This document shows, piece after piece, positions 34,415-60,614 of a stretch of DNA of 64,000 bases. The stretch is from Heptranchias perlo (taxonomy: Eukaryota). A model generated the notes under the pieces. That model saw only the letters and a list, made by a program, of their open reading frames with translations, was not told the origin of the DNA and searched no databases. The stretch covers positions 3,038,001 through 3,102,000 of the forward strand of contig NC_090340.1 of the NCBI RefSeq assembly GCF_035084215.1, in the 5' to 3' direction. Within the stretch, counting starts at the first letter, position 1, and the number at the start of each line of letters is the position of its first letter. Both the position numbers and the translations under genes were made by a program.

Positions 34415-36795
34415 ATTTTTTAAGTCATTCATGAGATGTGGGCTTCGCTGGAAAGGCCAGCATTTATTGTCGATCTCTAATTGCCCTTGAGAAGGTGGTG
34501 GTGAGCCGCTTTCTTGAACTGCTGCAGTCCGTGTGGTGAAGGTTCTCCCACAGTACTGTTAGGCAGGGAGTTCCAGGATTTTGACCCAGCGACGATGAAG
34601 GAACCGTATATATATTTAAAGTCGGGATGGTGTGTGACTTGGAGGGGAATGTGCAGGTGGTGTTGTTCCCACGTGCCTGCTGCCCATGTCCTTCTAGGTG
34701 GTAGATGTCGTGGGTTTGGGAGGTGCTGTCGCAGCTGCCTTGGCGAGTTGATGCAGTGCATCCTGTGGATGGTACACACTGCAGCCACGGTGAGCCGGTG
34801 GTGGAAGGAGTGAATGTTTACTGTGGTGGATGGGGTTCCAATTAAGCCGGCTGCTTTGTCCTGGATGGTGTCGAGCTTCTTGAGTGTTGTTGGAGCTGCT
34901 CTCATCCAGGCAAGTGGAGAGTATTCCATCACACTCCTGATTTGTGCCTTATAGATGGTGGAAAGGCTTTGGGGAGTCAGGAGCTGAGTTTCTCGCCGCA
35001 GAATACCCAGCTTTTGACCTGCTCTTGTAGCCACAGTATTTATGTGGCTGATCCAGTTAAGTTTCTGATCAATGGTGACCCCCCAGGATGTTGATGGTGG
35101 GGGATTCGGCGATGGTAATGCCGTTGAATGTCAGTGGGAGGTGGTTAGACTGTCTCTTGTTGGAGATGGTCATTGCTTGGCACTTGTTTGGCTCGAAAGT
35201 TACTTGCCACTTATCAACCCAGGCCTGGATGTTGTCCGGATCTTGCTGCATGTGGGCACGGACTGCTTCATCATCTGAGGAGTTGCGAATGGAACTGAGC
35301 ACTGTGCAATCATCAGCGAACATCCCCATTTCTGACCTTGTGATGGACGGAAGGTCAATGATGGAGCGGCAAATGATGGTCCGGCCGAGGACACTGCCTT
35401 GAGGAACTCCTGCAGCAATGTCCTGGGGCTGAGATGATTGGCCTCCAACAACCACTACCATCTACTTTTGTGCTACTTATGACTCCAGCCACAGGAGAGT
35501 TTTTCCCCTGATTCCCATTGACTTCAGTTTTGCTCGGGCTCCAACTAAAACACTCGATCAAATGCTGGCTTGATGTCAAGGGCAGTCACTCTCCCCTCAC
35601 CTCTGGAATTCAGCTCGTTTGTCCATGTTTGGACCAAGGCTGTAATGAGGTCTGGAGCCGAGTGGCCCTGGCGGAACCGAAACTGAGCATGAGTGAGCAG
35701 GTTATTGGTGAGTAAGCGCCGCTTGGTAGCACTGGTGACGACACCTTATATCACTTTGCTGATGATTGAGAGAAGACTGATGGAGCAGTAATTGGCCGGA
35801 TTGGATTTGTCCTGCTTTTTGTGGACAGGACATGCCTGGGCATTTTTCCAGATTGTCGGTTAAATGCCAGTGTTGTAGCTGTACTGGAACAGTTCGGCTA
35901 GAGTCGCGGCTAGTTCTGAAGCACAAGTCTTCAGCACTACAGCCGGGATGTTTTCGGGGACAATAGCCTTTGTTGTATCCAGTGCACTCTTGATATCACG
36001 TGCATTGATTCGAATTGGCTGAAGATTGGCTTCTGTGATGTTGGGGATATCAGGAGGAGGCCGAAATGGATCATCCATTCGGCACTTCTGGCTGAAGATG
36101 GTTGCAAACGCTTCAGCCTTGCCTTTTGCACTAACGTGCTGGACTCCACCATCATTGAGGATCGGGATGTTTACAGAGCCTCCTCCTCCAGTTAGTTGTT
36201 CAACTGTCCACCACCTTCACGATTGGATGTGATAGTACTGCAGAGCTTGGACCTGATTCGTTGGTTGTGGAATCGCTTCGCTCTGTCTATAGCATGTTGC
36301 TTCCGCTGTTTATCATGCACGTAGTCTTGTTATGTAACTTCACCAGGTTGGCACCTAATTTTTGGGTACGCCTGGTGCTTCTCCTGGCATGCTCTTCTAC
36401 ACTCCTCATTGAACCAGGGTTGATTCCCTGGCATTATGGTAATGGTAGAGTGAGGATTATGCCAGGACATGAGGTTACAGATTGTGCTGGAATACAAATC
36501 TGCTGCTGATGATTGCCACAGCGCCTCATGGATGCCCTGTTTTGAGCTGCTAGATCTGTCCTGAATCAATCCCATTTAGCACTGTGGCAGTGCCACACAA
36601 CACGTTGGATGGTGTCCCCGGTGCAAAGACGGGACTTCGTATCCACGAGGATTGTGTGGTGGTCGCTCCAACCAATACTGGCATGGACAGATGCGTCTGC
36701 GACAGGTAGATTGGTGAGGACAACGTCAATTCGGTTTTTCCTTCCTGTTGGTTCGCTCACCATCTGCCTCAGGCACAGTCTGGCAGCTGTATCCT
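34415..36795 (-). mobile_element. Older 5'-truncated copy of the tRNA-headed LINE family
   Basis: Minus ORFs 34477-35034, 35069-35461, 35860-36078 and 36330-36763 match the EN/RT of 27142-30478. Confidence 0.95.
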
Positions 36796-36809: not shown

Positions 36810-38622
36810 AAAACGAGCTATACGAAACTCTCCTTGGAGAGAATGGAACGGGAGATCCTATCAGTATAAATATCTCTGCGAAACTGACTTGCGTGAGAAC
36901 GGAGAGGAAGAACCGGTGAATATAAAGGGCGCTGTGAAACTGAACTGGCTGAGAACACAGCGGGAGATCCGGTGAGTATGTAGAGTGGGAGTCTCGGTGA
37001 ATGCAAAGAGCAGAAGACCCGGTGAGTACAACGAGCGGAAGACCCGATGAAGATATAGAGCTGAAGACCCAGTGAATACAATGAGCGGAAGACCCGGTGA
37101 ATAGAAAGAGCGGGAGACCCGGAAAATAGAAAGAACAATATGAAACGGACACTGACGCAAAAAGAAATAATTTTTTAAACGTGACGTCCGAGACAATACA
37201 AGGGGAGACGGGACGGGGACCGAGGAAGAGCAGCTAACTGTTTGGTTTATATATTTACGCTTTCATATTACACTATAGAGAAGTTAAGGAGCTACTAGAC
37301 AAATATATATATATATATATATATACAAATATTTTGGCATAATAGACAAGGGCAAAGCCAAACTTCAGGCAAACAGACAGTAACTCTAAGCAAAATGACG
37401 GGACAACTGAGACCCGTTGAATGCGCATCCTCTGCTGTGTGGATAATTCAGGACGCTTCGTGTCTCTTGGACAACCATGTGTGCAGGATGTGCCTCCGAC
37501 TCTTCGAGCTCGAACTCAGGATTTCTGAGCTTGAGGGGCAGCTTGTGTCACTGCAGGTCATACGGGAGGCTGTAAATTTCCTGTATCCCATGTTCCAGGA
37601 GGCAACCCCGCAGCCACAGAGAGTTCAGGATGACAGTAACTGGGTCGCCATCGGGGAGTGAAGGAAGAGTTGCAGGAATCCTTGGGAAATGTGGCACTCA
37701 CCAACCGGTTTTCAGTGCTCAATACCGGTAAGGGTGAGGACACCTGGAAGCAGTACAGTCCAGAGCAAATCCATGGCAGTGTGGGGCAAATGATTGCACA
37801 GGGGGGACTGCGAAGTGTACAAATACAGTTATCATAGGGGATTCAATACTCAGGGGGATAGACAAGCGTTTCCACAACTCCGACATGAATCTAGCATGGT
37901 GTTTTCGCTCCCTGGTGTCAGCTTAAAGGATATCATGGAACGGATGTGGAACATTCTGCATCGGGAAAGGGAACAGCCATAATTCCACGTCCATTTTGGA
38001 ACCAATGACATCGGAAGAAAAAGGGTTGAGGTGCCACAGACAAAGCTTCAGGAGCTGAGAAGGAAACGAAAGTAAAGGGTCTCAAAGATGGTAATATCTG
38101 GATTTCTCCTGGTATCATGAGCTAGTGAGTATATGAATAACAACAGAAAGCGGGGCTGGGTTAATGGCGCAGGAGAGAGGGCTTCAGATTCCTGTGGCAT
38201 TGGGAGACGGTCAGGGGCAGAAGGGGCCTGCACACAATTGAACGTTTGCACCTGAACAAGGCTGAGACCAATGTCCTCTCAGGGATGTTAACTAGTGCAG
38301 TTGGGAAGGGTTTAAACACTGTTAGGAGGAGCGGTAACCAGAGGACACAGATTTAAGATAATTGGCAAAAAAGCCAGGTGGAAGATGAGGAGTTTTTTTT
38401 TTACTCAGTGACTTATTATGATCTGGAATGCACTGCCTGAAAGGGAGGTGGAAGCAGATTCAATTGTAAATTTCAAAAGCGAATTAGTATGCTTAAAAAG
38501 GGAACTTTGTAGGTCTATGCAGCAAAAGCAAGCTAGTGGGACTAATTGGTACGACTTTCAGAGATCCGCCACGGACACGATGGGACGAATGGCCTCATTG
38601 TAGGCTGCATGATTCTATGATT
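36810..38622 (+). mobile_element. Internally deleted CR1: tandem-repeat 5' UTR + ORF1 remnant fused to the 3' tail
   Basis: Repeats of GAGCGG(A/G)AGACCCGGTGAAT at 36840-37125. ORF1 zinc-finger at 37395 and esterase remnants up to GGGTTTAAAC (~38316), followed immediately by the ORF2 C-terminus, 3' UTR and ATGATTCTATGATT tail. Confidence 0.8.
36840..37130 (+). repeat. Degenerate ~20-25 bp tandem repeat (CR1 5' UTR)
   Basis: Recurrent GAAGACCCGGTGA / GGGAGA(T/C)CCGG units. Confidence 0.75.
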
Positions 38623-39620: not shown

Positions 39621-40767
39621 ATTTAATACATTACATGGACTTTGACACATTCGTCCATTAGTTTCAAAAATGAATGCCGATGCTCTAAGGAGTCTGGGAA
39701 AGGCCACATGCAAAGAGCTGCACATGTTGATTGAAGCATTACTGTTTACCATAACATCAAAGTTTTAACGTTTTTAGTGTCAGTTTAAATCGTGCGCAAA
39801 GTGAGAACACGCTCCACTGTGGAAGATACATTAACAGTTAATTGCCAGGTCATGGTCTATTTTCGACGGACTTGGAGCTGTTTCCCCTCGGAGTCACGCA
39901 CCATATGGACTTCACGTATTGACATGTTTTAATTGAAAATATGTAGCATTATCTCACAACTGTCTGCATTAACCTCCCACAAAAGCACAAGTAGATCCAA
40001 ATTTAAATTGTTATCCCTCGGTAAGCAACTAAACAAACGATCCCTCTAGAAATCACTTCCCCCGCTCCCTCTCTCTCTCTTGCACTCTACTTTCCGTATC
40101 TCCTTTCATTGCAAACTCTTTTACCTTCCGCTGGCATTTCACACCTTCCTATTCTAAAACACTTTTCGGAATTTCTTTCGAGGATGTCGTTTTACACTGG
40201 TACATTCTTAACCGCGAGGACGTATAAAGACTTCAGTTCTTGATCTCAGATTATTGAAAGTCACTAATTTAAGCCGATTTTCTACATTTTTTCTGTCTGT
40301 TCGTTCAACAAAACTGTGGTTTGTAAATTTCCTTAGTCGCATGAGTAGAACGGAAACACTGCACGTTGTAGGCGGAGCACACATTCGGCGCAGCCACGTC
40401 CATCAGACGGATGGCATTCAGCATAAATATGTTGCACCCTGACAACTCAATGCAACAGCTGTCTGATCCGAGTATCTGCAACGCTCAACTCAGGCATGGG
40501 TTTAGTTCTGGTTCGGAATGCCGTGTTTCAGTATTGTGCCACGCTGGGGATTTTCTGCACATGTATTCGACCGATTTCTCTGGAGCAGAGAATTGCCATC
40601 AATTATACAACGTTCATATTTCTCTATGTTCTGTTTTATTGATCACGTTTTAAATTGTTTCCTTTACTTTGGGCTATTCTGCTTGTCTTTGTTTTGTTCT
40701 GTTATTAATTGTTGGAGTTATTTTGTGTTTGAAGTAAATATTGTGCTACTGTATCTAATTCCTACAG

Positions 40768-41079
40768 GTGCCCTGGATGTTTCTGGGAAAGTCCCTGCAT
40801 CTGTAACGGCGAACAGGGGTGAGAACGTAATCTTACACGGCAACGTATCTGGATTACAAAAGAATGAGCACATGAATGTTTACTGGAGTACGAGCGATTC
40901 GCATCAAACCGGAACATTAAAGACTGACAACCGCGTAATAACTCGTGTTCTACCGAATGGAACATTTTTCCTTCATCTGCACAATGTGAGTTTCCAGGAC
41001 TCTGGAGCCTATCGTTGTAGAGTGAGAGTTGGGAAAAACAATTATGTTGATGGATGCGGCACAGAACTAATTGTATGTG
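40768..41079 (+). CDS. Ig-superfamily gene B: germline-joined V(J) domain exon
   Basis: cctacag|G ALDVSGKVPASVTANRGENVILHGNVSG...NVYW...FFLHLHNVSFQDSGAYRCRVRVGKNNYVDGCGTELIVC-G|GTAAGT. V-set W, DSGxYxC and the J-like GxGTxLxV are in one open exon with phase 1/1 junctions. The B-strand Cys codon is GGC (40839). Confidence 0.9.
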
Positions 41080-41979
41080 GTAAGTGGCGTTCCATAAAAA
41101 CCTAAATGTCGTTTATGTACTGATGACATCATGGAAGATAACAGGATGGCGAGATGGACGGATAGATGGATAGATAGATATTTAAAAATATTGCTTAACA
41201 GAGCTGACGGTTCAACTCTAGGAGCATTACGCATCTTCCGTAATAACACTCTATACAGATTGAAATCATCCCAGCTTCTATCTAGTAAATTAAATGAATA
41301 TTTATAGATGAGAGTTCTCCATGAAAAGCTTAAATAAGTAATAAGTTATTTAATTTTCGGGTTTTCCGCTGCTCTTCCGCCGGATTAAAATCGGATGAGC
41401 GGCAGAATCCCCCAAAAACCTCTCAGCGGACCATCCACAGCACAACATACGCTGGCAATTCGAGTTCAAAGGCAACCTGGCCAAATGAGATAGACGCCAC
41501 CCAATATAACACACGCACTGAAAACAAATCAATCAAAGAATGGTAACGGCAATCAACGCAGTTTGATCGGTGTGAAAGTCGCCTTAGGCGTCAGCACAAC
41601 ACGGAGGTCAGCATCGGCAACTGGTCACTTTCCTTTTGACTACAATTGGTTGGAAAATCGGGCGAGAGATTTTGCGCTTTCGCGCTTCCGCCAAAGTCGA
41701 CCCGTGAGTGGAAGTCAATGGGAAAGGAAATTCAGCGGGTGATCCGCTGCTGTCAGTCTTTGTCCCTCTAGGATTGGATTTCACCTAATAATGCTGGTTT
41801 CAAATAAATGCGCCCTATCGTATCCAGTTACTGCCTCCCACTCATTGGTGAATGAAATCAAAATGTTGCTCCAGAACTCACTTCGGTAAATTTTCAACTT
41901 GCCGCCAGAACGTAAAACCGGAATTGGCAATGGTCCGCCTTTTATAGAATCTCACCCCCGTTGAAATTGACCCCGATGA

Positions 41980-43788
41980 TACCGGTTTCAAATAACGGAG
42001 TCGTGGCTCAAAAAGACCAGGATTGTGTGCTAAATATTCCTGGATAAAAGGAGTTCAGGAAAGGTAGGGAAGGACAAATAAGAGGGTGGGGGTACCAGTA
42101 TTGATTGAGGAGAATATTGAAGTGCTGGAGAGCGAGAATGTCCTGGAGGCGTCAAGGACAGAATCTATTTGCCTAGAGTTAAGGAATAATAGAGGTGCCA
42201 TTATACTACTGGGAGTATTCTCTCGGCCACCAACTAGTGGGAAGGGTATAGAGGAGCAAATTTGCAGGGAAATTACAGAGAGGTGTAAACGCCATAGATT
42301 TGTGATAACGGGGGATTTCAACTATCCTAATATAGATTGGAGTAGTAATAATAGAAGAGGCGGAGGAATTTTTGAAATGTGTTCAGGATAACTTTCTCGA
42401 CCAGTACGTTTCTGGCCCAATGAGGAAGAACGCACTGCTGGACTTGGTTCTCGGGAATGAGACCGGCCAATGGAGTAAGTGTCAGTGGGAGAGCATTTGG
42501 CAGCAGCGATCATATTATCATAACGTTTAGAATACCTATGGAAAACGACTCTATCCACTCTAAAGTAAAAATGCTGAATTGGAGGAGGGCCAATTTCAGT
42601 CGGATGCGAACAGATCTGGCTCGGGTAAATTGGAATCAAAGATTGGCAGGCAAAACTCTAATTGAACAGTCGGTGGCCTTTAAAAAGCAGCTGATTCGGG
42701 TACATACACGGTACATTCCAACGATGGATAACGATAGCGCAACTAAAGCCAGAGCTCCATCGACGATAAAGGAGATAGAGAATAAGCTGAAGCAGGAAAA
42801 AGTAGCATATGAGAGGTGTCAGGTTGATAACACAAGTGAGAACCAGGCAGTGTGTGGACATGGGAATACAGGACACAATTTCAAAATTTGCAGATGACAC
42901 AAAACTTGGAAGGGTTGTGAACAGTGAGGAGGATAGCGATAGACTTCAAGAGGATATAGAAACACTGACAGGTGGAGTTTAACGCCGAAAAATGCGAGGT
43001 GATGCATTTCTGTAGGAAAAAAATAGGAGAAGCAATATAAACCACAGGGCACAATTCCAAAAGGGGTCGAGAAACAGAGGGATCAGGGGGAATATGTGCA
43101 TAAATCGTCGAAGGTGACAGGGCAGGTTGAGAGAGCGGTTAAAAAGGAATAAAGGGTCCTGGGCTTTATAAATAGAGGCATAGAGTACAAAAGTATGGAA
43201 GTCATGATGAATCTTTATAAACCACTGGTTCGGCCACAACTAGAATATTGTGTCCACTTCTGGGCACCTCACTTTAGGAAGGATGTAAAGGCCTTAGATA
43301 GGGTGCAGAGGAGATTTACTGGAATAATTCCAGTGATGAGGGACTTAAATTACGTGGATGGACTGGAGAGGCTGGGATTGCTCTCCTTGGAACAGAGGAT
43401 CTTGCGAGGAGATTTGATAGAGGTGTTCAAAATCATGAAAGGTCTAGACAGAGTGGATAGAGAGAAACGGTTCCCATCGGCGGAAGGTTCAAGAACCAAA
43501 GGGCATAGATTTAAGATGATTGGGAAAAGAAGCAAAGGTGACATGAGGAAAAACTTTTTTACACAGCGAATGTTTAGGATCTGGAATGCACTGCCCGAGC
43601 GAGTGGTGGGGGCAGATTCAATCATGGCCTTCAAAATGGAGCTGGATGAGTACTTGAAACGAAAAAATGGGCAGGGTTACGGGGATAGGCGGACACGTGG
43701 GACAAGCAAGATTGCTCATGCATCGGGCAGGCGCGGACTCGATGGGCCGAATTACCTCCTTCCGTTCTGTAATCTTCTATGATTCTAC
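41980..43788 (+). mobile_element. CR1 with an internal deletion (EN fragment joined to the RT 3' part)
   Basis: EN ORFs 42086 and 42457 jump at ~42855 to SKFADD-like sequence; ORF 43195..43782; CTATGATTCTA tail. Confidence 0.9.
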
Positions 43789-44512
43789 GACAAACAGACT
43801 CTATAATGTAAAGCTATTTTCGGAAGTGGTTTGCATCGCACTTAGAACCGTTAATTCGTCTTTTTGGTGAATGAAATCATAAAATTGTTGCAGAACTCAT
43901 ATGAGTAAATTTTAAACATGCCGCCAGGGCCCAAACCTGGCATTGCACGCGATCCGTCTGTTCTGGAAACCGCCCGAATTTACTTTCCATTGAAATCAAA
44001 ACGAACCATTATCCAGTTTGGTCCGGTGTACATATATATCCTCTCCGTGAGATTTTTGTCCTCAAGACTACTGCTCTAAGTTGGTGTTGGCATTTCGCTC
44101 ACCTTAGTTAACATTTTTTCAGCTGTAATTGTGAAGGACCAACTGATATTCCCATGGGTTCTCACCGTCTGTTCGGGCAACTTCGGGCAGAGACCGGCGG
44201 AACCAAAGCAAAACGGATACTTAGGGGTTTCTCTTGGTCTCCCGCAGACACTGCGCAGCCTCGTGGAATTTCACGGCGCAGACGACAGTAGTAATGGGGG
44301 AATTTAACTAACCTGATCTAAATTGAGAGAACTTGAAAAAGGACAATGTCGATATATGTAGAGCAGACAAAATGAGGAATGTTGTTTGCTGTGTAGGAGA
44401 CTGTACACAACTTCAAAATAATACAGATCGGTTGCAATATTGGTTAGGATCAAGTCAGTTTAATGTGGAGATATATGAGTTAATGCTTTTGGGAAGGACG
44501 AATGAGATCGAA

Positions 44513-44914
44513 TGCAATAGTTATCTTAGTCGTCTAGTAATCCAGAGGTGTCGACTAATAATCCAGAGAATATGAGTTCGAACCTCACTTTAGCAGTTTG
44601 AAATTATTAGTTCAGTTTTAAAAACATGGAAATAAGAAGCTGGTATGAGTGGATTGCCGTGAAACTCTACTGATGCACGAAAGTGCGTTATGGAATGAAA
44701 TCTGCCATCCTTACTCGGTCTGGCCAATTATGTGAATCTGGTCTCACACTAACGTGGTTGAATCTCAATTGCGCTCTGAAGTAGATTAGAAAGACAAGCG
44801 GTTGCAGGAAACCGCTACAAAGTTGGCCCACAAACTCAGTCTCCGGGCAATTATGGATGGCCAATAAATGATGGCCCTGCCTGTGAAGCACACATCCCGA
44901 GAATGAATTAAAAA
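44513..44914 (+). mobile_element. tRNA-derived SINE sharing both the 5' ~370 nt and the 3' ~90 nt with the LINE at 27142-30478
   Basis: CTAGTAATCCAGAGG...TAATCCAGAG...GAGTTCGAACC head; TGCCATCCTTACTCGGTCTGGCC...GTGGTTGA...CTCTGAA...CGCTAC body; GGGCAATTATGGATGGCCAATAAATG...CACATCCCGAGAATGAATTAAAAA tail. Confidence 0.85.
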
Positions 44915-46070
44915 CAAATCATAGGCAAAAATATTGAAGGAATTAAAGAGCAGGTCGATTTAGGAGTTTGGGTTCGCAATTTTAAAAGATGGCAAGAGGA
45001 ATCGGCAAAGCTTTAAAAACAATCTAATTGAATGGACTCCAGCGGAGAGTCGCCTGGTCCACGCCGTAACTCTGGCTGGAGACTGGCTGAAGTTCTCGAG
45101 AAACGTTCTGCATGTCAGCAGCCGGCCGGTTATACGGTTTCACTGCCTGTGCCCTGCGCGAAACGGATCATAGCCCCTGCGGATTTTTAGGGCCCTAGAT
45201 TTTATATAATGGAGCATACGGATAAAGACAATGATATTGCTAAACCTATACATATCATTTGGCAAACTCCAGTTAGACAACTGTGCACAGCATTAGGGGT
45301 ATTACTTTGGGAAAGATGTCAACTATACTGAGTGGATCCAAAAGATTTTCACTGACATTGGATGAAGACTGAAAAGCTTTAGTTATGGGAATAGACGACA
45401 GAAATTGGGACATTATTCCCGAAATCAGTGAAAGTTAAGAGACCTGAATGAAAGTCACCAGTAATCGATCCCGCTGAATTTCAGTGCCATTATTTCGACG
45501 GAGTATTTTCCAGGGCGGCTTGGTCAGGAATTGGGCTCATTTGGAAATCAGCGAGATGCTGTAAAGGGAGCACAGTTCAACTAGTATTCCAGAGGGTAAT
45601 ATCTAATAGACAGCAGAGCTTTTCTCATTCGAACATGTTTTTTGGACCATGCGATATTTTATTTGGAGTGAAGATTCATCAACAGCTGACTGAAAGGCCC
45701 TTCTCCAATCAAAACAAAAGTTCCTTACAAGCCCCCAAAATCGATTTTAAACATCAAGCAAATCTAGTTGTGTTCTGTGAAAGTTTTGAGCAGGGAATTA
45801 CTACGCAGCAGAATAATTTTTTTTTGTCTATCAGACATTTTGTTTATAAAATAGCATGAACCCATGAACCGTATCTTGCGTTTAATCATTGTTGCTATAA
45901 CATATTGGCAATATAAACATCAACGTTACGTAATGTCCGTTTTAATGTGATCCTAGCTGAGCGTGGTCCTATTTAAATAATTGTTGACTTCCTTGCTGCT
46001 GTTTGGCTCCAAGTCCACTTTGGTTGAAAATTAATTTCACAATAACATTTTATTTGTATTTTATCAACAG

Positions 46071-46375
46071 TTCCTCCGACGCCTTTGCAGATTTCCTTCA
46101 CTGTGTTTAAAATGGGTCATCGACTGCTTTGACTCTTTTGTGTGAAACAGCTGCGTTTTTCCCGGAAAAGCTGAACATCAGTTGGTATAAAAATGGATCC
46201 GAAATTCTGAGCGGTATGGAACGAATCAAAGACCGGAACCTAGCGGGACTGTATGAAGTTTCCAGTTATCTCAGTGAACCAGGTCCGTTGCAGAGTGGAA
46301 CTAATTACACCTGTCAGGTATCACACGTCTCTCTCCAGACTGGAGCCAGCGTTCATTACATTTCTCAAATTTCAG
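46071..46375 (+). CDS. Ig-superfamily gene B: C1-set domain exon (1-nt frameshift near 46109-46112)
   Basis: ttatcaacag|V PPTPLQISFTVFK / NGSSTALTLLCETAAFFPEKLNISWYKNG...GLYEVSSYL...NYTCQVSHVSLQTGASVHYISQIS-G|GTAAA. Canonical C1 motifs and phase 1/1 junctions. The entry frame hits TGA at 46130 unless one base is added (e.g. to the AAAA run). Confidence 0.88.
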
Positions 46376-47444
46376 GTAAATTTTCAAGTTTAAAAGCTGC
46401 TATGTATAATTCCAACATGCAGAAAAAATGTTTTATAAGAGTTGACAATTTTCCCCGCCTTTCAAGAAATTGTTGATTTTGCTGAGATCCGTCTCCATAG
46501 ACTGCCGGACTCATGTTGTGCTTCGTGAGTTGCTACTCTTTATGTGAGAGTTTAAAGGGTTTCGGGAGATCATTACAGCAATAGCCAAATCTATCTCCGC
46601 CATTCAGTTTACAGCAAGGACATTTGTACAGTGATCTGGAGAATGGCACTTGTTTTATTGTCCCTTTCTCCAGCCCAGGTGGCGGTCGGTTTTCCCGCCC
46701 CAATAAATTGATGAGGACTTACTGGAAATGCATAAACTGACACTTTCTGGCCTGTTTGGCTCTTAAATCAAGCAGAAATTCTACAAATCTTTAGACGCAA
46801 TACTTCTCCCCATCCTCCCGGGAATTCCAGACCTTACCGTCTGGAAGTTCGGGGGCGATTTTAGCCTTTGTCAGGGGTTTGGGGGGTTCTCTTCCGAGTT
46901 TAAAGGGTGGCGAACACGACAACCTTGAGCTAAAATTCTGTCCTTATGTATTCAGACCTTTGCCAGATGCTGTCTTCACCGACCAGGCCTTGCATGAATC
47001 TAGGTTTAGTAGTTAAATCGTTCGGTTTACCGGCAGCATTCTTTAAGGCTGGTAACAGCTTTATTACTTTGTATAAATTTCATTATTTTCCGAAATGAGG
47101 TAGAAGTTTCGGTTACATAGAAACATTTCCTTTAATTATGGTCAACCATATCTCAGAATTACAGCATGTCAATCAAATGCTTTTGTGAAGAAAATGCAAT
47201 AGCCGCACTCATGTTTTGTATTATATCTCGATTCTCCGAGCTTCAAGTGTTACACATTGACAATATTGTTGTGCGCAATTCGAAAAACGCCGGTTAATGA
47301 ACACTTCCGTCATCAATACGTTTAATTAAGCTCGCGGGAATACACTGTCAGAAGACTGAAACCTTTCACCATCACTGATACAAATCGAAACAATGCAACT
47401 TAATCACATAGGGTAAAGAAAAGTTATGACTAACAGTGATTGAG

Positions 47445-49572
47445 AACATAGAAACCAAGGAGGTGGGCCATTCAGCCCCTCTAGCCGAGTCCGCCATTAA
47501 ATGAGATCACGGCTGATCTGTATCCGAACTCCATCCACCCGCCTTGACTCCATATCCCTTAATACCATTGATTGACAAAAATCTATCGATCTCAGGTTTA
47601 AAATTATTAATTGAGCTAGCATCCACCGCTTTTTGTGGTAGAGGGTTCCACACTTCCACCACCCTTTTCTTGAAGAAGTGTCCCCTTACTTCTCTCCCGA
47701 ATGGCGTGGCTCTGATTTTAAGGCCATGTTCCCTTTCCTAGACTCCACCACAAGTGGAAATGTTTCCCTCTATCTAATCTATCAGTTCCTATCAAAGTCA
47801 TAAAAACCTCAAGCAAATAATCCCTTAGCCTTCTATATTCCAGGCAATACAACCCGAGTTGATGTAATCGCTGCCCATAATAATATAAACTTTGAATCTC
47901 TGGTAACATTCAGGTCAGCCTGCGCTGCACTCCTTCAAAGGCCAATGTGTCCTATCACATATGTGGTGCCTAGAACTGTACGCAGTAGTCCAGATGTGGT
48001 CTAACTAGGGCTTTCCACAGTTGTCGCAAAACTTCCTCCGCTTTACATTCTCTCCCTCGAGTTATAGAGGCTAACATTACATTGGCCGTTTTGATTTATT
48101 TTTGCACCTGACTACTACATTTTAGTTATCAGTGTATAAAGACTCCTAATTATTGGGACATCCATTGTTCATAGATAGTCACCATTTAAAAAATATACTT
48201 TTTTGTACAAAATGGTTGACCTCACACTTAATTGGATTGAAATCGATCTGCCAAAGTTTTGCCCACGAACTTAATTTATCAATGTCTCTTTTTAATTTTA
48301 TGCTCCCCTCTGCACGACTTACAATGCCCACAATCTTTGTGTCATCGGCAAACTTAGATAGATGGCTCTCTATTGAGTTATCTTAGTCATTAATAAGTAT
48401 AGTGAATAGTTGAGGCCCCAGCACCGATACTTGTTGGACAACACCAGTTACTTCCTTCCAATTCGAGTACATAGCCATTGTCGTAGCGGATCCAGTTGGT
48501 CGCCTTTATTACTACCGATAGTCTTTTGTAACAGAGCTTTACTGGAGCAGATGGAAGGGAGAGCCTTCGGCGTAACGAGGTCTCTCACTGATTTCAACAA
48601 TTATATCAGACTTTATACACAACTGAGTTGGAAATGACAGCATACACTTAGCAGACACCGGGTACGTGCATACATGGTTGTTACTGACAGGCAGCTGCCC
48701 ATCGGCCTCCAATCGCTTACTAATCACGCCTATGCTTCGTCCAAAGCCGTTACAGATTCTGCAACGTGAAGTCCTTACTTCTGTTTTGCATGTGGTTGCA
48801 ACCAATTTGGGGCCGCCTGTGCCTTGTCCATGACCGTTGTAGGGAATCGCACGTATGCGGAAGCAGAAGTTTCCTGTTATTTCAATTTTCTACTCCCAAG
48901 GTCCTTATTTCTCCTTTTGGCCTGTTACTCCCCTTGTCTGGCCCCTCATTGTGACTAACTTTGGAACTTGTTCCTGCTTCATAGAGTTTCGTTCAAAACA
49001 TGTTTTCATTAACTGCCACGCTGCAACTGTTGACACTTTGCTTTAGTCTGCTTTTGGTCAAGCTTCCCATTATGCGGTTGCTCAGCCTAGCTTAGTATCC
49101 ATTTAATATTATACATCCACACATTAATATTTTAATATTGCGAAGCTCGTAATTCCTTATTAATTGCCGTCTGCAACAGCCATTATCCCTACTTTCTGTC
49201 TTCTACCGCCTAATCAATCTCCAAAAGTGGTCGATAATTTGCTTTCAATTCCATGAGCTTTAAATTTAGCTAACAGTCTCTTGTATGAAACCTTATCAAA
49301 TGCTTTCTGTGAGTCCATATACATTACATCCATAGACATACTTAAGCGACTTGCTCAAAAAAATCAATTAGGTTCGTTAGACATGACCTCACTTTTAAAA
49401 ATCCATGTAGGCTCGCTCTAATGATTTCTGTAAGTGCTAAGTCACTCTGTCGTTAATTATCTGTTCTAATAACTTCCCCACAACAGATGTTAGACTAAGA
49501 GGTCTATACTACCCTGGTTTCACTCTCACACATTTCTTAAATAATGGAGTTACATTTGCAATTTTCCAACCA
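47445..49572 (-). mobile_element. Old CR1 3' half, interrupted by a solo LTR
   Basis: AACATAGAAAC tail and CR1 3' hairpin at 47445-47530. RT remnants at 47718-48470 resume at 49179. Confidence 0.85.
48479..49178. mobile_element. Solo LTR (700 bp) with a 5-bp target-site duplication
   Basis: Begins TGTCGTAG and ends CTGCAACA (imperfect inverted TG...CA termini). Flanked by GCCAT at 48474-48478 and 49179-49183. CR1 sequence is continuous across it. Confidence 0.8.
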
Positions 49573-52500
49573 GTGACTTTATAATCTCTTTGGCTCTTTA
49601 ATTGCGTGGTGATTCTATGAGTTTCTCGCCGGAGGACAACACACCTCCAAACTCCCCCGCCCCCGGCCCCAAGCGAATGTCAGGCCCAATCGCTTTTAAT
49701 TTCTGCGGCGGTTTCGGCAGTTTGTCCGAGGTTTTCGGGACCGTCCACCGAGGTTAAAGCGGGAGAACGCAACAATTCTTCAACTATATAATCAACTTTT
49801 TGCTGCATGATGCGTTTACTAACCAACCGACCAGGCCATCCAGGAACCTGGGACTTTTGTTTAAATTCTTCAGCACTCCGATATCGTTCTATAAGGGTGG
49901 TAATAGAAAGATCTGTTTATATTATTTTCATTATTGTGCGAAATGAGGGCGAAGTTTCGGTTCTCTAGAGACATTTCCTTAAACTTAAGTTAACAATGCC
50001 CCACAATTGCAGAATTTAAATCAAAATGATTTGTAGAGAGTGTATATTAACACCACCGCCGCCCCCCACCCCACACCCCGCACCACCCGAATCACCTTTT
50101 CTTGGCGTATAGCTGGGTGATCCGCACTAAAGGTTTTTCATTTTCATTATTGCTGTGCGCAGTCCCAAATTTTCCAGTTCATAGACGTTTATTTCCCGTT
50201 ATCAATATAATTATAAAGCTCGCAGGAATACACTGTCAGAAGCCTTAAATGTTTGATCGTCACTGATACAAAAAGAAACAATACAAATGAAACACTTCAG
50301 ACAATGACAGGTTATGACCAACAGTCATTTAACTATCCAGTGAATTCAGCCCTTTGTAACTGTATCATTATTAACAAATTTGGCCATGAATTTCTGAGGG
50401 ACTTTCCTAGTCAGCTGCGCTAATCGCTGGGAGATCAGTGGAACCGTTGTGGAAAAGTTCATGAACAGGGCTGACAAGCGTGAATATCGCCCACTCGGTC
50501 GCTTTAACTTCACGGGAAGCACTATGGAAACACGGGTAGTCTGGAGTTTTGGCGGCTCTCCCGCTGAAGTTATGGCGGTCGAGCGGGATATCCTGTACAG
50601 AATTTTACCCAAACTGTTTTGGCTAAAAACTTCATCCGGTCTGGTAAGCAAATAACTTTCAGAGGAATCACTCCTATTCCTTTTTGAAATTTTTTCACCT
50701 GAAAATTTTTGATCTGCAAATTTTTGTGCAGCAACTGAAGTATCTTTTTCGCAAAATAAGACAATATACACGATTGAAAATTTAATGACAATATATTTAC
50801 AATAGCATGATTAAACGTTTCCATCGAATTCCCCCTTTAATCTTCCAGTTCCTTCTTTAAGGTATTAATTCAATGCTTCAACCTCTCCCAAATGTGCAGG
50901 TTTGCGCTTGATAGTTTTGTCCAGTGCTGTCACACTGTTAGCTGAGCTTAGGTTATACGTCTGAGAATGTGCAGTGTATTTGTACTTGTCGTCAGCTGTC
51001 GATTCATCCATACAAAGGACAGATGTTAGGTTATTTATTATAAAAATGCTTCTAACTAGTGTTTAAGAAAAAGCAGGTCTGTTTTCTGTATGTGCCTGTG
51101 TGAGAGAGAGAGAGAAGAATACTAACAATTGCATTATGACTAGGCACCTGTGTTACGTTTTGTTTTCTGATCAATAAACGTCAGAAAGTTTGTTAAGCTG
51201 AGGAATAGAGAATGATAATGAAAGACACATATCAGAGATTGATAGAGGATATTCTTACGACACAGACAGAGATAGGGGAGGGAGAGAACTTTGAGATATT
51301 TCTTCAGCTTAATATTAATTTAGTTTTCGAACAAATGTAAATTGAACGTTGTTTCACCTAATTGCCTCCTCTGTCTCCTATGTTTTCTTGACAGTTACAA
51401 AGAGTTAATTCTAATTTCTTACTGCTACGAGACAGAAATTATACTTGCTCACATATGCCAATCAAAGACCAAGGGGGTAATTTTAACTTTTATCGCTTTC
51501 ATCCGTTTTGCACCCAGACACAAAATTTAAAATTCGACCAGAGAGACAGGCAGAGAGTGATGCAGACAAACGGTGATTTTCCTCTTTCGAATTTGATTTC
51601 TTTGAAAAAAGTAAGTTATATTTTCAAACCAAAAGCAGCCAATTCAAAGGAAATGAATAGAAAGGGATGGTGCTAATAACAGTCATGAAATTGCGTAAGC
51701 ATAAGGGTGCCTTAGATCTCTCAGCGGGGCAATAGGACTAATTGGATCGCCCTTTAAAAGAGCCGGCAGAGACACTAAAGGCCGAATGGCCTCATTCTGT
51801 GCCGTAAGATTCTACGATTCTATGATTTATCACACACACTGGAGGAGTGTGCAAAAGGGTAGGAGTGGCGAAGAGCATGGGGGAGGTTATAGGTAAGGTT
51901 AGTTGCACAGGAGCAACAGAATTTTTGGTGTGAATTTATATTTCAATGAAGAAGACCTGGAACAGTGATTGGAGTGAGGAGTGATATGAAGAAAAGGAAG
52001 CAGTGGAAGGGTGAATAGGTGGAAATTGCTACAGCAGCTAGGGGCTTGGGTGAAGCATGAATAATTGCGGAGAAGATGGGAAATCAGTCAATTAGGGCAA
52101 GAGTTTCTTTGCAATCTCAGCTAAAATACTGCGTGCAGCCATTAGTTCCTCATTTCTCTTTCACAACACAATGTGCCCCTCGCCACCTCCGTCTTCCATG
52201 GATCGCGCAATAATGCAGAGAAGGAAGCAAAAGAAGATGGAGAGAGAAGCAAAGAGAACTTAGTGACAGAGAGCAAAAGAGGAAAGAGAAGGATTCAGAA
52301 CTGGAAGAGCGGAGAAATAGAGAGAAACAGTAATGACAATAGAACTGACACGGATGAGGAAGGCAACATGACCTTCAATTTACATGGGTTATCAGTGATT
52401 TGGCGTCAGAATTCGGATGCGTGACCTGCGAAAATTCCGCGAAACTAAAGCGCGTGAACATGCTGTCACTAGAATTATCGCTTGGAAGTCACCGGCTGGA

Positions 52501-53180
52501 CATCAGCGAAACCAGTGAAGAAACAGCTTAATAGTCTAAAAACAATCTTTCTTATAGCGTGAGGGAGGAGATCAATGGAACTAACGTAAATTCTTCCCTA
52601 ATTGTAGATGTTAAGCAGACAAGTCGTATTGACGGCTGATGTAAAATAGGACAATGTCAAAACACGGCAGTAGAGAAAGCTGGAAGATTAGCCTATGAAG
52701 GTATTGCGAGGAAATTGAAGACGTTTACGGTTTTACAAGCAAAAAACACGACGAGGTCAGGTCCAACATCAGTATTTGTAAATTTAGGCTTTATCGACTC
52801 CGTGTCACGAAGTATCCACGGAGCTCGTCTCGCTCAAGTGCATGAACATGTCTCATGCTCATTCCTAGCGACATTTAAAATATTTCTTTCTCGAATGTAT
52901 TTATAGTATTGCTCGAAAAAACGGACAGAGAAAATCTTCACCAAAGCATTGACGATATCACGACACATGGCAATCAATGGAATCCTTGTTCCAGTCGGTT
53001 TTATAACTTCAAATGATTTTCTGTGGTTCTATTCTGTGGTTCTATTACAAAATATAAAGATAATACAATAACTATCTAGTGGATAATGTTTGATTACATG
53101 GCATCATCAGAAATATCATCAGATTGATATGGTTTCTGGTTGTGAGCAGTGTATCATTGATTACTTTATACCTGTTACAG

Positions 53181-53296
53181 GTCACCATTCTGTTCTACCC
53201 GCCCACCTGATTTATCGATCCACAGTGGGGTTATTGGTCATTATTCTACTACTGATTATCATCCTCAACCATGTTACATCAGATAACTTTCTAAAG
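53181..53296 (+). CDS. Ig-superfamily gene B: transmembrane exon
   Basis: cctgttacag|G HHSVLPAHLIYRSTVGLLVIILLLIIILNHVTSDNFLK|GTAAGA. The phase-1 acceptor matches the C1 donor; the hydrophobic run has an Arg near its N-terminal end. Confidence 0.8.
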
Positions 53297-53494
53297 GTAA
53301 GAGAGTTTTCAAAATGTTAATCTTAAATAGTATTATTTAATTTCTAACATGGAAGGAATATGTGACATTTGGTTATCAATTTTAGAGATTTCCACTCAAT
53401 AAATACAAAATAATGAAATGCCTGAAGCCGTGATAAACAAACAGGAAGTCCTATCAGCGCCGCTGTTTAATGCGGGTGTTAGAAGATAAGGTAA

Positions 53495-55895
53495 AATAAG
53501 AAATAGGAGCAGGAGTAGGCCATACCAGCCCTCGAGCCTGCTCCGCCATTCACGAAGATTATGGTTGATCTTCCATCTTCGCTCCACTTTCCCGCCTGAT
53601 CCCCACCTCCCTTGATTCTTCTGGAATCCAAAAATCTATCGACCTTAGTCTTAACTATACCCAGCGATTGAGCATCCACAGCACTCTGGGGTAGATAATT
53701 CCAAAGATTCACAACTCTCTGGGTGAAGAAATGTCTCCTCATCTAAGTCCTAAATGCCCAACTCCTTATCCTGAGACTATGTAGCCTGGATCTAGACGGT
53801 CAAGCCAGGGGGAAAAGCCTCTCAGCATCTACCCTGTTAAGCCCACTCAGAATCCTATATGTTTCAATGAGATCGTCTCTCATTCTTCAAAACTCCAGAG
53901 AGACCAATTGTGCTCAATCTCTCCTCATAGGAAAACTCTCTCATCCCAGGAATTATTCTAGTTAACCTTCATTGCATCGCCACTAGGGCAAGTATATCCT
54001 TCCTTATGTTAGGGGACCACAACCGTACACATTATTCCAGGCCTGGTCTCACCAAAGGCCTGTACAATTGCAGCAAGAATCCCTTACACTTATACTCCAA
54101 CCCCCTTGCAATAAAGGTCAGCATACCATTTACCTTCCTAATTAGTGCTGTACCTGCATGTTAACTTTCTGCTTTTCATGTACAAGGATGCCCAAATCCC
54201 TCTGAACACCAACATTTAATAGTTTCTCACCGTTGAAAAAAAAAACAGTTTTCCTTTCCTTCCTACCAAAGTGAATAACTTCACATTTCCCCACATTATA
54301 CTCCATCTACCACCATCTTGCCCATTCACTTAACCTGTCTATATCTCTTTGCAGACTCTTTGTGTTCTCCTCACAGCTTATCTTCCCACTTAGCTCTGCA
54401 TTGTCAGCAAAATTGAATATATTACTCTCGGTCCCTTCACGCACGTCATTAAAATAGGTTGTAAATCGTTGAGGCCCAAGCCATGATCCTTGCAGCACCC
54501 CACTAGTTACAGACTCCCAACCTGAAAATGAACTGTTTATTCCTAGTCTCTGTTTTCTGTCCGTTAACCAATCCACTATTCATGCTGATATATTGGCCCA
54601 ACCCCATGGGCCCTTATCTTGTGCAAAAACCTTTGGTGTGACATCTTATCGAATGCCTTTTGAAAATCCAAGTACACTACATTCACTGGTACCTCTTTAT
54701 CTACCCTGTGAGTTACATCGTCAACAAAACTCGAATAGATTTGTCAAACACGATTTCCTTTTTATAACACCATGTTGACTGTACTTAAACATATTATGAT
54801 TTTTTAAGGGCCCCGTTACCACCCCCTTAATTTTTGATTACAGCATTTTCCCGACGACTGATGTCAGGGAAACTAGCCTGCATTTCCATGCTTTCTCTCT
54901 CCCTCCTTTCTTGAATGGCGGTAATAAATTTGCTACTTTCCAATCCATTAGCACCGTTCTAGAATGTAGGGAATTTTGGATGATCACAACCAATGCATCC
55001 ACGACCTCTGCAGACACCTCTTTTAGAACCCCAGGATATAAGCCATCCGGTCCATGGGATTTGTCGGCTTTTAGTCCCATTAATTTCTCCAGTACTTCTT
55101 CTTTACCAATATTAATTACCTTAAGTTTCTCACTCTCATCAGAACATTGCTTCCCCACTATTTCTGGTATGTTTTTGTGTCTTCTACTGTGAAGACAGAT
55201 GCAAAATATTTGTTTAACATTACTATCATTTCCTTATTCCCCATTATAATTTCTTCTGTCTCTGCCTCTAAGGTATGTATTTTACTTTCGCAGCTCTCTT
55301 CCTTTGTATATACTTGAAGACGCTGTTACAACCTGACTTTACATTTCTTACTAGTTTTCTCTCATTTTATATTATCTCGTTCTTTATTAATTATTTTGGT
55401 CATCCTTTGCTGGTTTCTAAACCTCTCCCAATCCTCAGGCTTTCTATTATTCTTCTTAATATTATAAGCATTTTCTTTTAATCTATTTATATCCTTATCA
55501 TATTTTAGCCATGGATGGATCACTTTTCCGGTTCATTTTTTATTTCTCAATGGAATGAATAATCGTTGATAATTATGAAATGTTTAGTTATATGTTCGCC
55601 ATTGTTTATCTACCATCATATATTTTAATCTAATTTCCCAATCAACCTTAGCCAACTCGCCCCTCATACCTATGTGATTGGCTTTGTTTAAGTTTAAGAT
55701 TCTAGTTTCGGACTTAATAAGTCACTCTCGAACTCAATGTGAAATTATATCATATTATGATCCCTCTTCTCCAGAGGATCTCTTACTATTTAATTACTTA
55801 TTAACCCTGCCTCATGACACAAGACATGATGTGAAATTATCTGCTTCCTGGTTGGTTCCACGACGTATTGTTGCACGAAACTGTCTCGAATGAAT
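53495..55895 (-). mobile_element. CR1 LINE, degraded, 5'-truncated
   Basis: 3' hairpin at 53500-53560; RT fragments 53479-53742, 54307-54576 and 54838-55158. Confidence 0.9.
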
Positions 55896-56559
55896 TCTAT
55901 GTACTATGGTTAAAACAGGCCTTCAAATTCTCATCATTATCATGGCCTCAAATGAATTCATCAAAGGGACAAGCTTTGTAATCGTTGTGAGAAATCCGTT
56001 ATATAATTTAAATTTGTCCTCTAAATTTCAGCCTCTAACTTAATTTAGTTTTCAGTAATTCTACACAAAACCCATCTATGTGTAATTCACCTTTGGGTGC
56101 ACATTGGTCCTGACATCCTGCAAAGCTGCCACCAGTGTCCCGGTGGTAGGTTCGGGGGAGTTAGGGTGGGGAGTGGGTTGCATATGCCAGAAAAATAATT
56201 GGATAAATGCCTGAAAAGATAACTGGCACCGATGGTCTGGGATTTAGGCTGATATCCGGAGGTAAGGACGGTGATGTTTCAATTCTGATTGTGAAACGCT
56301 TCAAGACCTGAAAACTCTGCAAGTGCCTGGTGTCCAGGTTGAATCTCAATAGGACACCAAGCGAAACCATAGTTGAAACGATGTGAATGATGGGAAGTTA
56401 GAGTGGGAGAGCAAAAGAACCTCAGCGGAATTTGACGATAATAATGGAAAAGCATAATTCATTGAGTTTACAAAATGTATTTTCTATTAATGGTTGAATT
56501 TAGTCCTCAAACAGTACTTGAGCTTGTGACAATGTGTTGGTGTTGATATGAAGCTCAAC

Positions 56560-59278
56560 GCAAGCTCGAAGAACAGCAACTGATTTTTGTACGAACACAT
56601 GAAGCACTATCAGGACCTGCTCTCCTCTGCCAGAACTGCTCAAAACACCAGGCTCATCCTGGAATGCAAAGATGACTCCCGGCATCTCTGTTCCACTACC
56701 AACTGTCTTCATAAGCCCATCTCCCCCGCACCCTCCTCCCTCACCTCCAACACGTGCGAGGAGCTTATTGACTTTTATGTCACTAAGATTATGAACATCC
56801 GTTCAATTGACTGTGCTGCTTCCCCCCATTCCCCCCGGCAACCCAGCAAAACTTCACCCAACGATTCTCCCTGCCCTAGCCCTGAACACGCATCATTCTT
56901 TAGTTTTTCTCCTGTCTCCCTTCATGACATCTCCGACCTCATCTTGCCCACGAGACCCAACTCCTGCTCCTGCAACCCCATTCCCACCAAACTACTGACC
57001 ACCCAACTTTCTTTCCTGACCCCCATGCCATCTGATATTTCTAACTGTTCATCGCCTCAGTTTCTGTACCCCACCCTTTAAAATCTTCCGTCATTAATAC
57101 CTCATCCAAAAACCTACCCTTGATCCACACTGATGCTGCAAACTATTGACTCATCTCCAAACTCCCTTTTCTCTCCAACGTCCTTGAACGTGTTGCACCT
57201 CCCAAATCCATGCCCATTTTTCCCCGGACTCCATGCTTGATTCTCTCCAATCGGGTTTCCACCCCGGCCACAGCGCTGAAATGGCCAGTATATAATTCAC
57301 AGGTTACATCCTATGTAACTGTGACTGTGATTCACTCTCCATCCTCGTTCTTCTCGATCTATCTGGAGCCTTTATCATGATTGAGCCCATCATCCATCTC
57401 CAATATCTTCCCTCCGTTGTCCACCTCACCCTGATTCATTCTTATCTGTCCAGTCACAGCCAGAGATTCTCCTATAATGGCTTCTCTTGCTACTCCCACA
57501 CCGTTGCATCTGGAGACGACCACGGATATTTACTTGCCCCCCTCCGAGTTCTCACCGACTTGATGGCACGTGGTGATATCATCCGAAACTACAATGCCAC
57601 ATTCCATAAGTACTCTGATGACACCCAGCTCTACTTCATCACCGCCTCTCTCGACATCTTCACTTTAGCTGATTTCCCATGCTGCTTGTCCGTCACCCAG
57701 CATTGGATGTGCAGTAATTTCCTCAAATTAAGTATTAGGAAGAGAGAAGCCATTTGTGGGAGATGGTTGGGGTGCGGGGTGGTTGTTGTGAGGGAGGTGG
57801 GGGTGATGGTAAAATATCAGGATGGAGCAACCCGACCCCAACCCACTCTATTCCCACCCCTTTAAAGTTTATGATACAGAATTTATGCCATTGACAAGGC
57901 TCTGGCAAAAGGCGGCCAGGGTCATAATTAATATTCCAAAGTCACGGCTGGCTGACATCATAGGCTCCACGACTTAAATTTAACTGGAAATGCGAGGGAG
58001 GCCCGAGCTGTCGGCTGCGTGCTGCTAATCCGAGGTGCGGGCTGCACGGTCACGGGGGTAAGTTCTTTCCGCTCACCCACCCACTGGTCCCGAAATCCAG
58101 CCTCCCGCCGGCCACGATTTCCATCCTCTCACTGGCCCCCATTTCGAGCCTCCACTGGCCCTGATCTCTTCCCTCCCACGGCCTCGAACTCCAACCTCCA
58201 CCTGGCCGCGACCTCCAGCCTCTCGCTTTCCCAATCGAGGCCCGGAACTTCGGCTCGCATCCAGGTTCTGTGGAAAACCCACACGGATCGATGGCTGCGG
58301 CATCCCGCAAACAAACTTGATTCCCGCTTGCTGGACAGGCTGTCAACTTGGCACGCTCAACAACATGCTAATGAGGCACTGCTATTAAGGTCGGCAGGGC
58401 ATCCACGTCACCGGCCTTGCTGGGTTCTCACCCCAAAGGGGGTCCACGCCCTCCGCCCCCGCCCCTCCCCCCACCGCAAAAGCATCCCCAGATTCGCATT
58501 AATATTGGTCCTGCTACAAACGCCGTTCCCGAGTCACCGACTCTCGGGCCACACTTTGGGGTTTAACCAAACTATTTGTATCCTCGTTGTCCTATTTGAC
58601 CCTAATTGGAGTTTCCGACCTCATATCCTCTCCATCACCAACACTGTCTACTTCCTAATCAGTAATATTGCAGCTCTCTGCTGCTGCCTCAGCCCTTCTG
58701 CTGTTGAGCCCCTTATCCATGCTTTTGTTACTTCTAGTTTGGACTATTCCAATGCTCTCCTGGATGGTCTGAAACCTTCCACCTCTTCAGCTCATACGAA
58801 ACTCCGCTCCCCGTATACTAACCCGTTCACCAATCACACCTGGACATTCTGAACTTTCTTGACCCCCATCTTGCAATGCCTCCAATTTAAAGTCCGCATC
58901 CTTGTGTTCAAATCGCTCCATTGCCTCGCTCCTCCCAATCTCTGTAACCTTCCCCAGCACTATAAACCTCCGCGATTTCTGTGCTTCTCCAATTCTTGCC
59001 TCTTGCGCAACCCCGATTTTCCTCACCTCAACATTTGCGGCTTGCCTTTAGCTGTGCAAGTCCTAATTTCTGCAATTCCCTCCCGAAACCTGTCCATCTC
59101 TTTATCTGCCTCTCCTTCTTCAAAGCGCTACTTAAAATCTATCCCTTGATCCCACCTTTTAGTCACCTGCCCGAATATCTATGGCTCGGTTTATTTTTTT
59201 TTCTGTAAACGCTCCTGTGAAGCGCCTGGGGACGATTAACTAAGTTAATGGCGCTGTCTAAAGCAGGTTATTGTTGTT
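56560..59278 (+). mobile_element. L2 LINE, degraded, with a GC-rich insertion at ~57750-58510
   Basis: SCSCNPIPTKLL, FHKYSDDTQLY, LIHAFVTSSLDYSNALL (L2 hallmark) and QFKVRILVFKSLH; L2 tail GTGAAGCGCCTGGG...GGCGCT...GTTATTGTTG. Confidence 0.85.
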
Positions 59279-59499
59279 TGGCATTTTGCAGGCCGCTGGC
59301 TTGAATGCTGACTTTAGCCAACTTCAAATCTGAACCACAGCGCCCATTTTCTCCCCCAAATCAGATGTTGGTTAAGTAGAATGGGATGACTGGAAATGGG
59401 GAAAGTGTGGGCTGGTGCTTGGATGGGGATCCCCTTACGCTACACGATCGTTGGCATCTACCAGCCTTTTTATGCTACATTCTTGGGCCACTGGAGCCT

Positions 59500-59880
59500 T
59501 TCCGCTTAGCCAGATTTTACGTACTTCCATCCCCTCTGTTATTCTGCTGAAACCATTCATACATCCTCCAGACACAAGTCTTCTTTCTCTAAACGAACTC
59601 ATCTTGTTTTGCCTTGCACCATCATCACCTCTGTCATTGAATCAACTCTTGCCATCCACTCAATAACAGACCTCTCTTTTTTTTATTTTACATGTTCTTT
59701 TTTCCTCAGCTATGTAGCTGCCTGAAAGAATTCATACTCAGACATCTTTCAGTACTGAAGACAAGTCATTGACCCGAAACCGTTAACGCTATGTTTTTCC
59801 CTCCACGTATGCTCCCTGACCTGAAAAGGTTTTCTCGCATTTTCTGTTTTCATTTCAGATTTTCAGACTTTTCACTATTT
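59500..59880 (+). mobile_element. Penelope-like element terminal remnant
   Basis: TGAAGA...GACCCGAAAC...CTCCAC.TATGCT.CCTGACCTG...GCATTTTCTGTTTT.ATTTCAGATTT. Recognised from memory as a common fish/shark Penelope-type end. Confidence 0.55.
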
Positions 59881-60569: not shown

Positions 60570-60614
60570 GCTATTTTATGCGGAAACAGTGATGGACAAT
60601 ACTCCAGGAGTTAA
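60570..60614 (+). CDS. Candidate short cytoplasmic exon of gene B
   Basis: Branch-point-like TGACTAAC at 60541 and acceptor tttatttccag| at 60569. Read in phase 0 (matching the TM donor) it gives AILCGNSDGQYSRS*. Signal-based only. Confidence 0.3.
   Translation, partial: AILCGNSDGQYSRS

Follow-up and report, generated by a model that had tools for sequence, protein, structure and literature searches.

A germline-joined VJ-C1 receptor gene of Heptranchias perlo, a probable activating receptor from a shark cluster of paired receptors

We analyzed a 64,000-nucleotide stretch of DNA of the shark Heptranchias perlo (contig NC_090340.1, positions 3,038,001 to 3,102,000, forward strand; hereafter the window). 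Its + strand carries a gene for a receptor with one immunoglobulin (Ig) V domain joined in the germline to a J-like strand, one C1 domain and a transmembrane (TM) segment containing an Arg. It probably belongs, as an activating type, to a cluster of paired receptors in sharks, and it is damaged in the window sequence. Its exons are real and have the shape of one antibody chain that was never rearranged: leader at 40496-40562, V at 40768-41079, C1 at 46071-46375 and TM at 53181-53296, with AG/GT splice ends flanking the V, C1 and TM exons. An earlier sequence-only reading of this DNA had described a non-rearranging gene with a joined-VJ exon, a C1 exon and an Arg-containing TM exon, and this description held up; it was incomplete in lacking the leader, a frameshift in the C1 exon, a lost Cys in the V domain and a dead paralogue at 9.3-18.5 kb.

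The gene and its family

The V exon is 312 nt long, runs from phase 1 to phase 1, and matched the Pfam V-set model (E 1.1e-10) and the family hidden Markov model (HMM; 80.4 bits). As the sequence-only reading had noticed, it ends in a J-like G strand, D-G-C-G-T-E-L-I-V, within the single exon. The F/W-G-x-G J motif is absent from this V domain, and a scan of the 64 kb for recombination signal sequences that allowed one heptamer and two nonamer mismatches returned none near the gene, in agreement with the same reading, its sole match lying at 20473 on the minus strand. Of the 17 positions that at least 85% of 28 relatives share, 15 are retained. An AlphaFold2 model of the domain has the Ig fold (predicted local distance difference test score 82.7); fold searches with tied scores pointed to a generic Ig fold, and the predicted homodimer scored 0.01 with the alignment not used. 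When the V domain was searched alone, 0 of 130 candidates matched in a word-indexed protein search and only generic Ig matches were found in PDB sequences and the ESM Atlas. The best single-domain matches among 1.84 billion representatives belonged to the chondrichthyan family described below, at 38-43% identity. Upstream, the leader exon runs on the + strand from an ATG to a phase-1 donor at the family-homologous position, is in frame with V, and is 76% identical over 21 amino acids to the leader of the relative P0001 (XP_067905014.1).

The C1 exon matched the Pfam C1-set model (E 2.6e-11) and the family HMM (123.5 bits), and its product is 65% identical to the C1 domain of P0001 and 54-65% identical to seven proteins among 123 candidates. 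All 7 of the matches to this query were chondrichthyan V-C1 or C1 models, as were all 32 of the matches to the relative P0159 (2415 candidates). The 39 proteins come from sharks, rays or elephant shark and carry automatic names such as SIRP-like, tapasin-related or NCR3LG1-like (B7-H6-like); because both protein searches depend on shared words, they do not imply that the family is restricted to these fishes. Within a species the members mostly lie on contigs of a single length, apparently one chromosome, with two on small scaffolds, which suggests a clustered family. Their layout is a leader, a joined-VJ V domain, one C1 and a TM, and relatives align as V-C1-TM. The RefSeq models XP_067905014.1, XP_067853506.1, XP_067853510.1 and XP_038662025.1 resemble the window gene in leader, joined-VJ V domain, a C1 domain starting V-P-P-T-P-L, and TM; the window gene differs from them in a highly diverged V domain without the B-strand Cys and in its frameshifted allele. 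Between the V and TM exons of the window gene the family HMM found a single C1 exon and, on both strands of the 64-kb window, it found no family exons beyond the gene and one upstream unit. That tandem paralogue is a feature shared with the chondrichthyan cluster. By sequence comparison, the window gene is thus classed as a member of an expanded chondrichthyan receptor cluster.

The family proteins are already public as automatic models. We found no description of this receptor family in the literature searched, although the likely key papers lie outside that search. Paired receptors of the Ig superfamily are well known; those of cartilaginous fishes, which have a V(J)-C1 ectodomain and fall into Arg-TM and inhibitory-motif classes, appear to be a variant of this kind. 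Two observations concern the models themselves. P0001 is modeled with its leader spliced directly to C1 and with no V; its V exon may have been missed, or may be broken like that of the window gene. The models P0043, P0067, P0166, P0173, P0175 and P0187 are isoforms without C1 or without TM, which suggests soluble and V-only forms.

Two TM and tail classes were evident when 34 of the 44 family records were examined, the other 10 having been set aside as isoforms, duplicates or a fused model. A TM was present in 32 of the 34 proteins. Long tails with tyrosine motifs were found in 24 of these 32, and none of the 24 has a TM Arg. Four of the 32 (P0174, P0180, P0186 and P0188) have a TM of the Arg-x16-Asp-His type with tails of 6-33 amino acids, one of which contains a single tyrosine match; one more has a TM Arg and a 3-amino acid tail, and three fall outside both classes. 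The TM of the window gene is of the Arg-x16-Asn-His type, with the Arg at its N-terminal side and the same spacing between Arg and Asn-His as in the four Arg types. It scored 8.7 bits against the family HMM; in BLOSUM62 scoring it reached 38, 22, 39 and 32 with the four Arg types and no more than 28 with any of 15 other anchored TMs. The TM Arg, which the sequence-only reading had seen, is a conserved class feature shared with four relatives and not noise.

In a C1 tree without an outgroup, the bootstrap of which had not fully settled, each Arg type clustered with tyrosine-tail members (supports 100/98, 99/97, 97/92 and 100/98). A single clade of the five Arg types was rejected by the approximately unbiased test (p-AU 6e-81). 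In one species, the C1 domains of P0174 (Arg) and P0165 (tyrosine tail) are 90% identical. Similar ectodomains joined to opposite tails are typical of receptor pairs that activate and inhibit.

The open allele of the gene would encode a type I receptor of 274 amino acids with a leader, a joined-VJ-type V domain, one C1, a TM and a short tail. Most siblings have tails with sequences resembling the immunoreceptor tyrosine-based inhibitory motif (ITIM) and would act via SHP phosphatases to restrain the activation of the cell. The minority that includes the window gene, with an Arg near the outer TM end and almost no tail, would instead assemble with a dimeric adaptor carrying immunoreceptor tyrosine-based activation motifs, FcRγ or ζ, so that ligand binding by the V domain could activate the cell, presumably a leukocyte, via the adaptor. 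The ligand would probably be a self marker, or a pathogen protein mimicking such a marker. Signaling through FcRγ/ζ is probable by analogy: in CD89 an Arg near the TM top binds the Asp pair of FcRγ/ζ, as is assumed by the same authors for NKp30 and NKp46 (PMC13107469), and activating Xenopus XFL receptors have an NxxR TM whose exon also encodes a short tail (PMC2413239).

A conserved cluster of activating receptors and matching inhibitory ones offers direct candidates for tests of adaptors, cell types and ligands. To our knowledge, the receptors that tune shark natural killer (NK)-like and myeloid cells are poorly known. The ectodomain is laid out like one Ig light chain or T-cell receptor (TCR) chain without rearrangement, which makes it relevant to the debates on the RAG target and on SIRP origin. 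The family carries more weight here than the single gene: automatic models of its proteins are already available, and the window copy may be dying.

State of the window copy

The C1 exon of the window is 305 nt long and frameshifted after 46109, with the first stop at 46130 (precursor residue 147), and V-C1-TM is therefore not open in this allele. The spliced V-C1-TM chain proposed by the sequence-only reading thus stood as to the V phases and AG/GT ends but not as to a continuous frame. In X1 and X4, public DNA runs from one sample, contigs show an additional base after 46109, at full depth, which gives an open 306-nt C1 exon, and no contig of these two runs has the 305-nt form. The window allele is either a null allele or an assembly error in a short A run. 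The 274-residue precursor of the open allele requires that the TM donor at 53296 be read through; the exon then extends to 53320 and encodes a short tail ending in a stop at 53318-53320. An AATAAA at 53398-53403, 78 nt past that stop on the + strand, is a possible poly(A) signal. The exon phases in the window would also permit skipping of C1, with a 172-amino acid open product. An alternative C1 acceptor at 46091 was rejected, as its frame meets a stop.

Several observations weigh against a working, activating-type gene. With respect to class, the window C1 is sister to that of tyrosine-tailed P0001 (99/96); its TM has no NxxR, which is present in two of the four shark Arg types, and has Asn where the other Arg types have Asp; a good donor, AAG|GTAAGA, closes the TM exon; and further exons for a tail could be present past the end of the window. 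With respect to function, V residue 24 is Gly (GGC, 40839) at the position of a B-strand Cys found in 28/28 relatives, the V domain sits on a long branch (2.2 against a median of 0.49), and the leader donor, CAT|GTATTC, is weak. Nine of the 11 listed C1 substitutions among runs, of at least 11 in all, change the protein, and purifying selection is accordingly not apparent, although none of them creates a stop. No splice junction was seen for the gene, and the relatives are automatic gene models throughout.

These functional points give substance to the most serious alternative, that the gene, although of this family, is a pseudogene in decay throughout the species, a reading to which we assign somewhat less than an even chance. 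The runs X1 and X4 are identical to the window over 40701-41009, so Gly24 is not an assembly error, and we read the missing disulfide between the B and F strands as a derived loss. The frameshift of the window allele, the dead neighboring unit and the modeling of the nearest relative, P0001, without a V also fit decay, as do the lost Cys, the weak leader donor and the variant pattern. On the other hand, X1 and X4 carry an open C1 exon with no stop among the listed variants, and the V frame is open with its conserved sites largely kept; only 3.7% of 2000 neutral random-substitution runs remained stop-free at 40% identity, a simulation that leaves a recent loss possible. The same Cys is also missing from fish PD-1 V domains (PMC11599192). 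The open V frame and the C1 exon open in other DNA fit a working or recently lost gene, and we consider it slightly more probable that the gene functions in the species than that it does not.

Two further runs, X5 and X6, are taken to be RNA by guess. A 245-nt contig of X5 lies inside the C1 exon with nine differences and spans no junction; it would count against a pseudogene, but it could be DNA or derive from a close paralogue. Over the stretch 40400-46600, X5 and X6 left the leader and V exon uncovered and gave no exon junction among the joints listed, a result that says nothing on expression, the TM exon lying outside this stretch. As a separate observation, the 11 listed run substitutions in the C1 exon compare with none in the V portion covered (40701-41009). 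The second C1 haplotype may not be an allele but a close paralogue.

Relation to known receptors

It is unlikely that the family is a cartilaginous-fish branch of the SIRPs with one C1 domain instead of two. SIRP-alpha and SIRP-beta resemble it in their joined-VJ V domain, C1-set domain and paired inhibitory and activating members, whereas the window gene has one C1, not two, and an Arg near the TM top that is not a DAP12-type contact. In SIRP this contact residue is a Lys. The RefSeq best-match names favor such a branch, as does the family profile, which gave 59.3 bits on the V-C1 of SIRP-alpha and 41.8 bits on its second C1, with a shared V-P-P-T start and the best score for a single C1 among the five alignments displayed. 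However, Ig light chains (63.1 and 62.5 bits) and UrIg2 V-C1 (59.3 bits) scored equally well, and C1-centered and V-centered family profiles favored major histocompatibility complex (MHC) class II beta and CD79b. SIRPs are both paired (PMC12975943) and joined-VJ (PMC11599192), but they consist of V plus two C1 domains and activate through DAP12 (PMC12975943), and by its architecture the family falls outside SIRP. A best match to a SIRP or B7 family member, which the sequence-only reading had named as evidence against itself, was obtained in automatic RefSeq names only, and the two-C1 architecture of SIRP was not found. B7-H6 and tapasin-related proteins did not appear among the 60 of 84 PDB matches listed for the family profile, and the resemblance to them is by automatic names. 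The family and SIRP may nevertheless be of common descent.

The TM and the probable short tail resemble those of LILRA, PIR-A, CD89, NKp46 and Xenopus XFL TM1, which have a TM Arg on the N-terminal side, a short tail and intermingled inhibitory siblings. The ectodomains of these receptors consist of C2-type domains; that of the window gene is V-C1, and its TM differs in the missing NxxR. NKp30 (NCR3) shares the joined VJ, the Arg-TM and probably the short tail, but it is a single V domain with no C1. It matched the family V profile weakly (E 5e-5). The window gene is not UrIg, NKp30 or an Ig/TCR gene.

The similarity to the Arg class also bears on the possibility that the window gene is inhibitory, with tyrosine-motif exons past 64 kb and an Arg that drifted from the Gly-Cys TM start of the family. 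This is improbable. The tyrosine-tailed sister P0001 and the good donor at 53296 speak for it, and Gly to Arg would take a single base change. Against it, Arg and Asn-His stand at the exact spacing of the Arg class, and a stop and AATAAA follow the TM. Neither tblastn nor the HMM found a tail exon in 53297-64000, although the degenerate tail exons of the upstream unit were detected in the same way.

Even less probable is orthology with PRARP, or that the gene is a relic of the pre-RAG receptor linked to the MHC as UrIg is. PRARP has a V-C1 layout, and the teleost NITRs show paired signaling. In favor of this reading, the window gene has a joined VJ with C1; UrIg2 was the top whole-chain PDB match of the family profile (a score summed over domains), and the top structural match of the V model was a VNAR (Z 14.3, root-mean-square deviation 2.0, 100 aligned). 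UrIg and UrIg2 are likewise shark genes with a non-rearranging, single-exon VJ and C1 domains, and UrIg2 has a Cys just before G-T in its G strand. However, per V-C1 the UrIg2 score ties with that of SIRP-alpha and falls below the light chains, and the VNAR Z score is within 1 of those for neuroplastin, titin and PD-L2. The window family differs further in its single C1 (UrIg has three and UrIg2 at least nine; PMC12227049), in its multigene cluster and in its tyrosine-tail siblings. No MHC-linkage marker gene was found in the 64-kb window, and LOC119970986, a family member of the catshark, did not occur in the catshark MHC chromosome gene table as searched (PMC10751288). Joined-VJ receptors include SIRP, NITR, PRARP, CD79, CD8 and NKp30 (PMC11599192), so that a J-like strand alone is no mark of an antigen-receptor precursor. 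The assignment to a PRARP/UrIg-like class, made in the sequence-only reading, was thus not sustained; the gene lies in an expanded cluster most of whose members are tyrosine-tailed.

A germline-joined Ig light chain or TCR gene, suggested by the V-C1 shape and by light chains as the top Foldseek matches of a relative's model (about 20% identity, TM-score below 0.4), is very improbable given the missing F/W-G-x-G motif and recombination signals, the TM exon, the tyrosine tails in the family and a C1 that is 55-65% identical to non-Ig receptors, and the C1 and P0159 protein searches in practice refute it.

The window V domain has an extra Cys in its G strand (41055) that is found in 0/28 relatives. 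V domains of UrIg2 are linked through G-strand cysteines (PMC12227049), and from its position the window Cys may be equivalent. A wider picture that takes up this point is tentative, and we rate it clearly below an even chance: the genes would form an undescribed cluster of germline-joined VJ-C1 activating and inhibitory pairs, extending from chimaera to rays and sharks, as a counterpart of KIR, LILR or SIRP with the build of an antigen-receptor chain; its origin may lie in a pre-RAG V-C1 receptor, with an ancestor in common with SIRP and a reedfish cluster; and the window gene would be a functional activating receptor whose V disulfide was lost and which gained a chain-linking G-strand Cys as in UrIg2. 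In reedfish, SIRP-like, tapasin-related-like and CD276-like genes occur among NK lectin-like genes on chr12 at about 7.4-11.7 Mb (supplement of PMC10751288). This run, likened by automatic names alone, may be the ray-finned fish counterpart.

The upstream unit and other features of the window

The unit at 9.3-18.5 kb is a dead inhibitory-type paralogue, 22 kb upstream of the gene on the same strand. Its V exon (9346-9633, start approximate) has four stops and is 41% identical over 91 amino acids to P0167 (E 7e-11), and its C1 exon (14415-14700, end approximate) has at least two frameshifts and scored 52.6 bits with the family HMM. A cytoplasmic exon at 18111-18227 encodes an ITIM-like L-T-Y-V-A-L and matched the tails of P0001 and P0002 by tblastn (E 2e-5), and a second, frameshifted one at 18369-18479 has a Y-A-T-L motif; all four exons are on the + strand. 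A leader or clear TM exon of the unit was not found, though there is a weak TM-like stretch near 17560-17640. Among the relatives, the fused model P0167 comes closest to it, in its N-terminal half (V 41%, C1 51%).

The rest of the window is rich in reverse transcriptase frames of the long interspersed nuclear element type, some long and open, at 5500-13400, 25600-36200, 42000-43800, 53500-55800 and 61200-64000; these are ordinary repeats. Degenerate tandem arrays with periods of 56, 25 and 24 nt were seen at 36865-37134 and 58081-58222.

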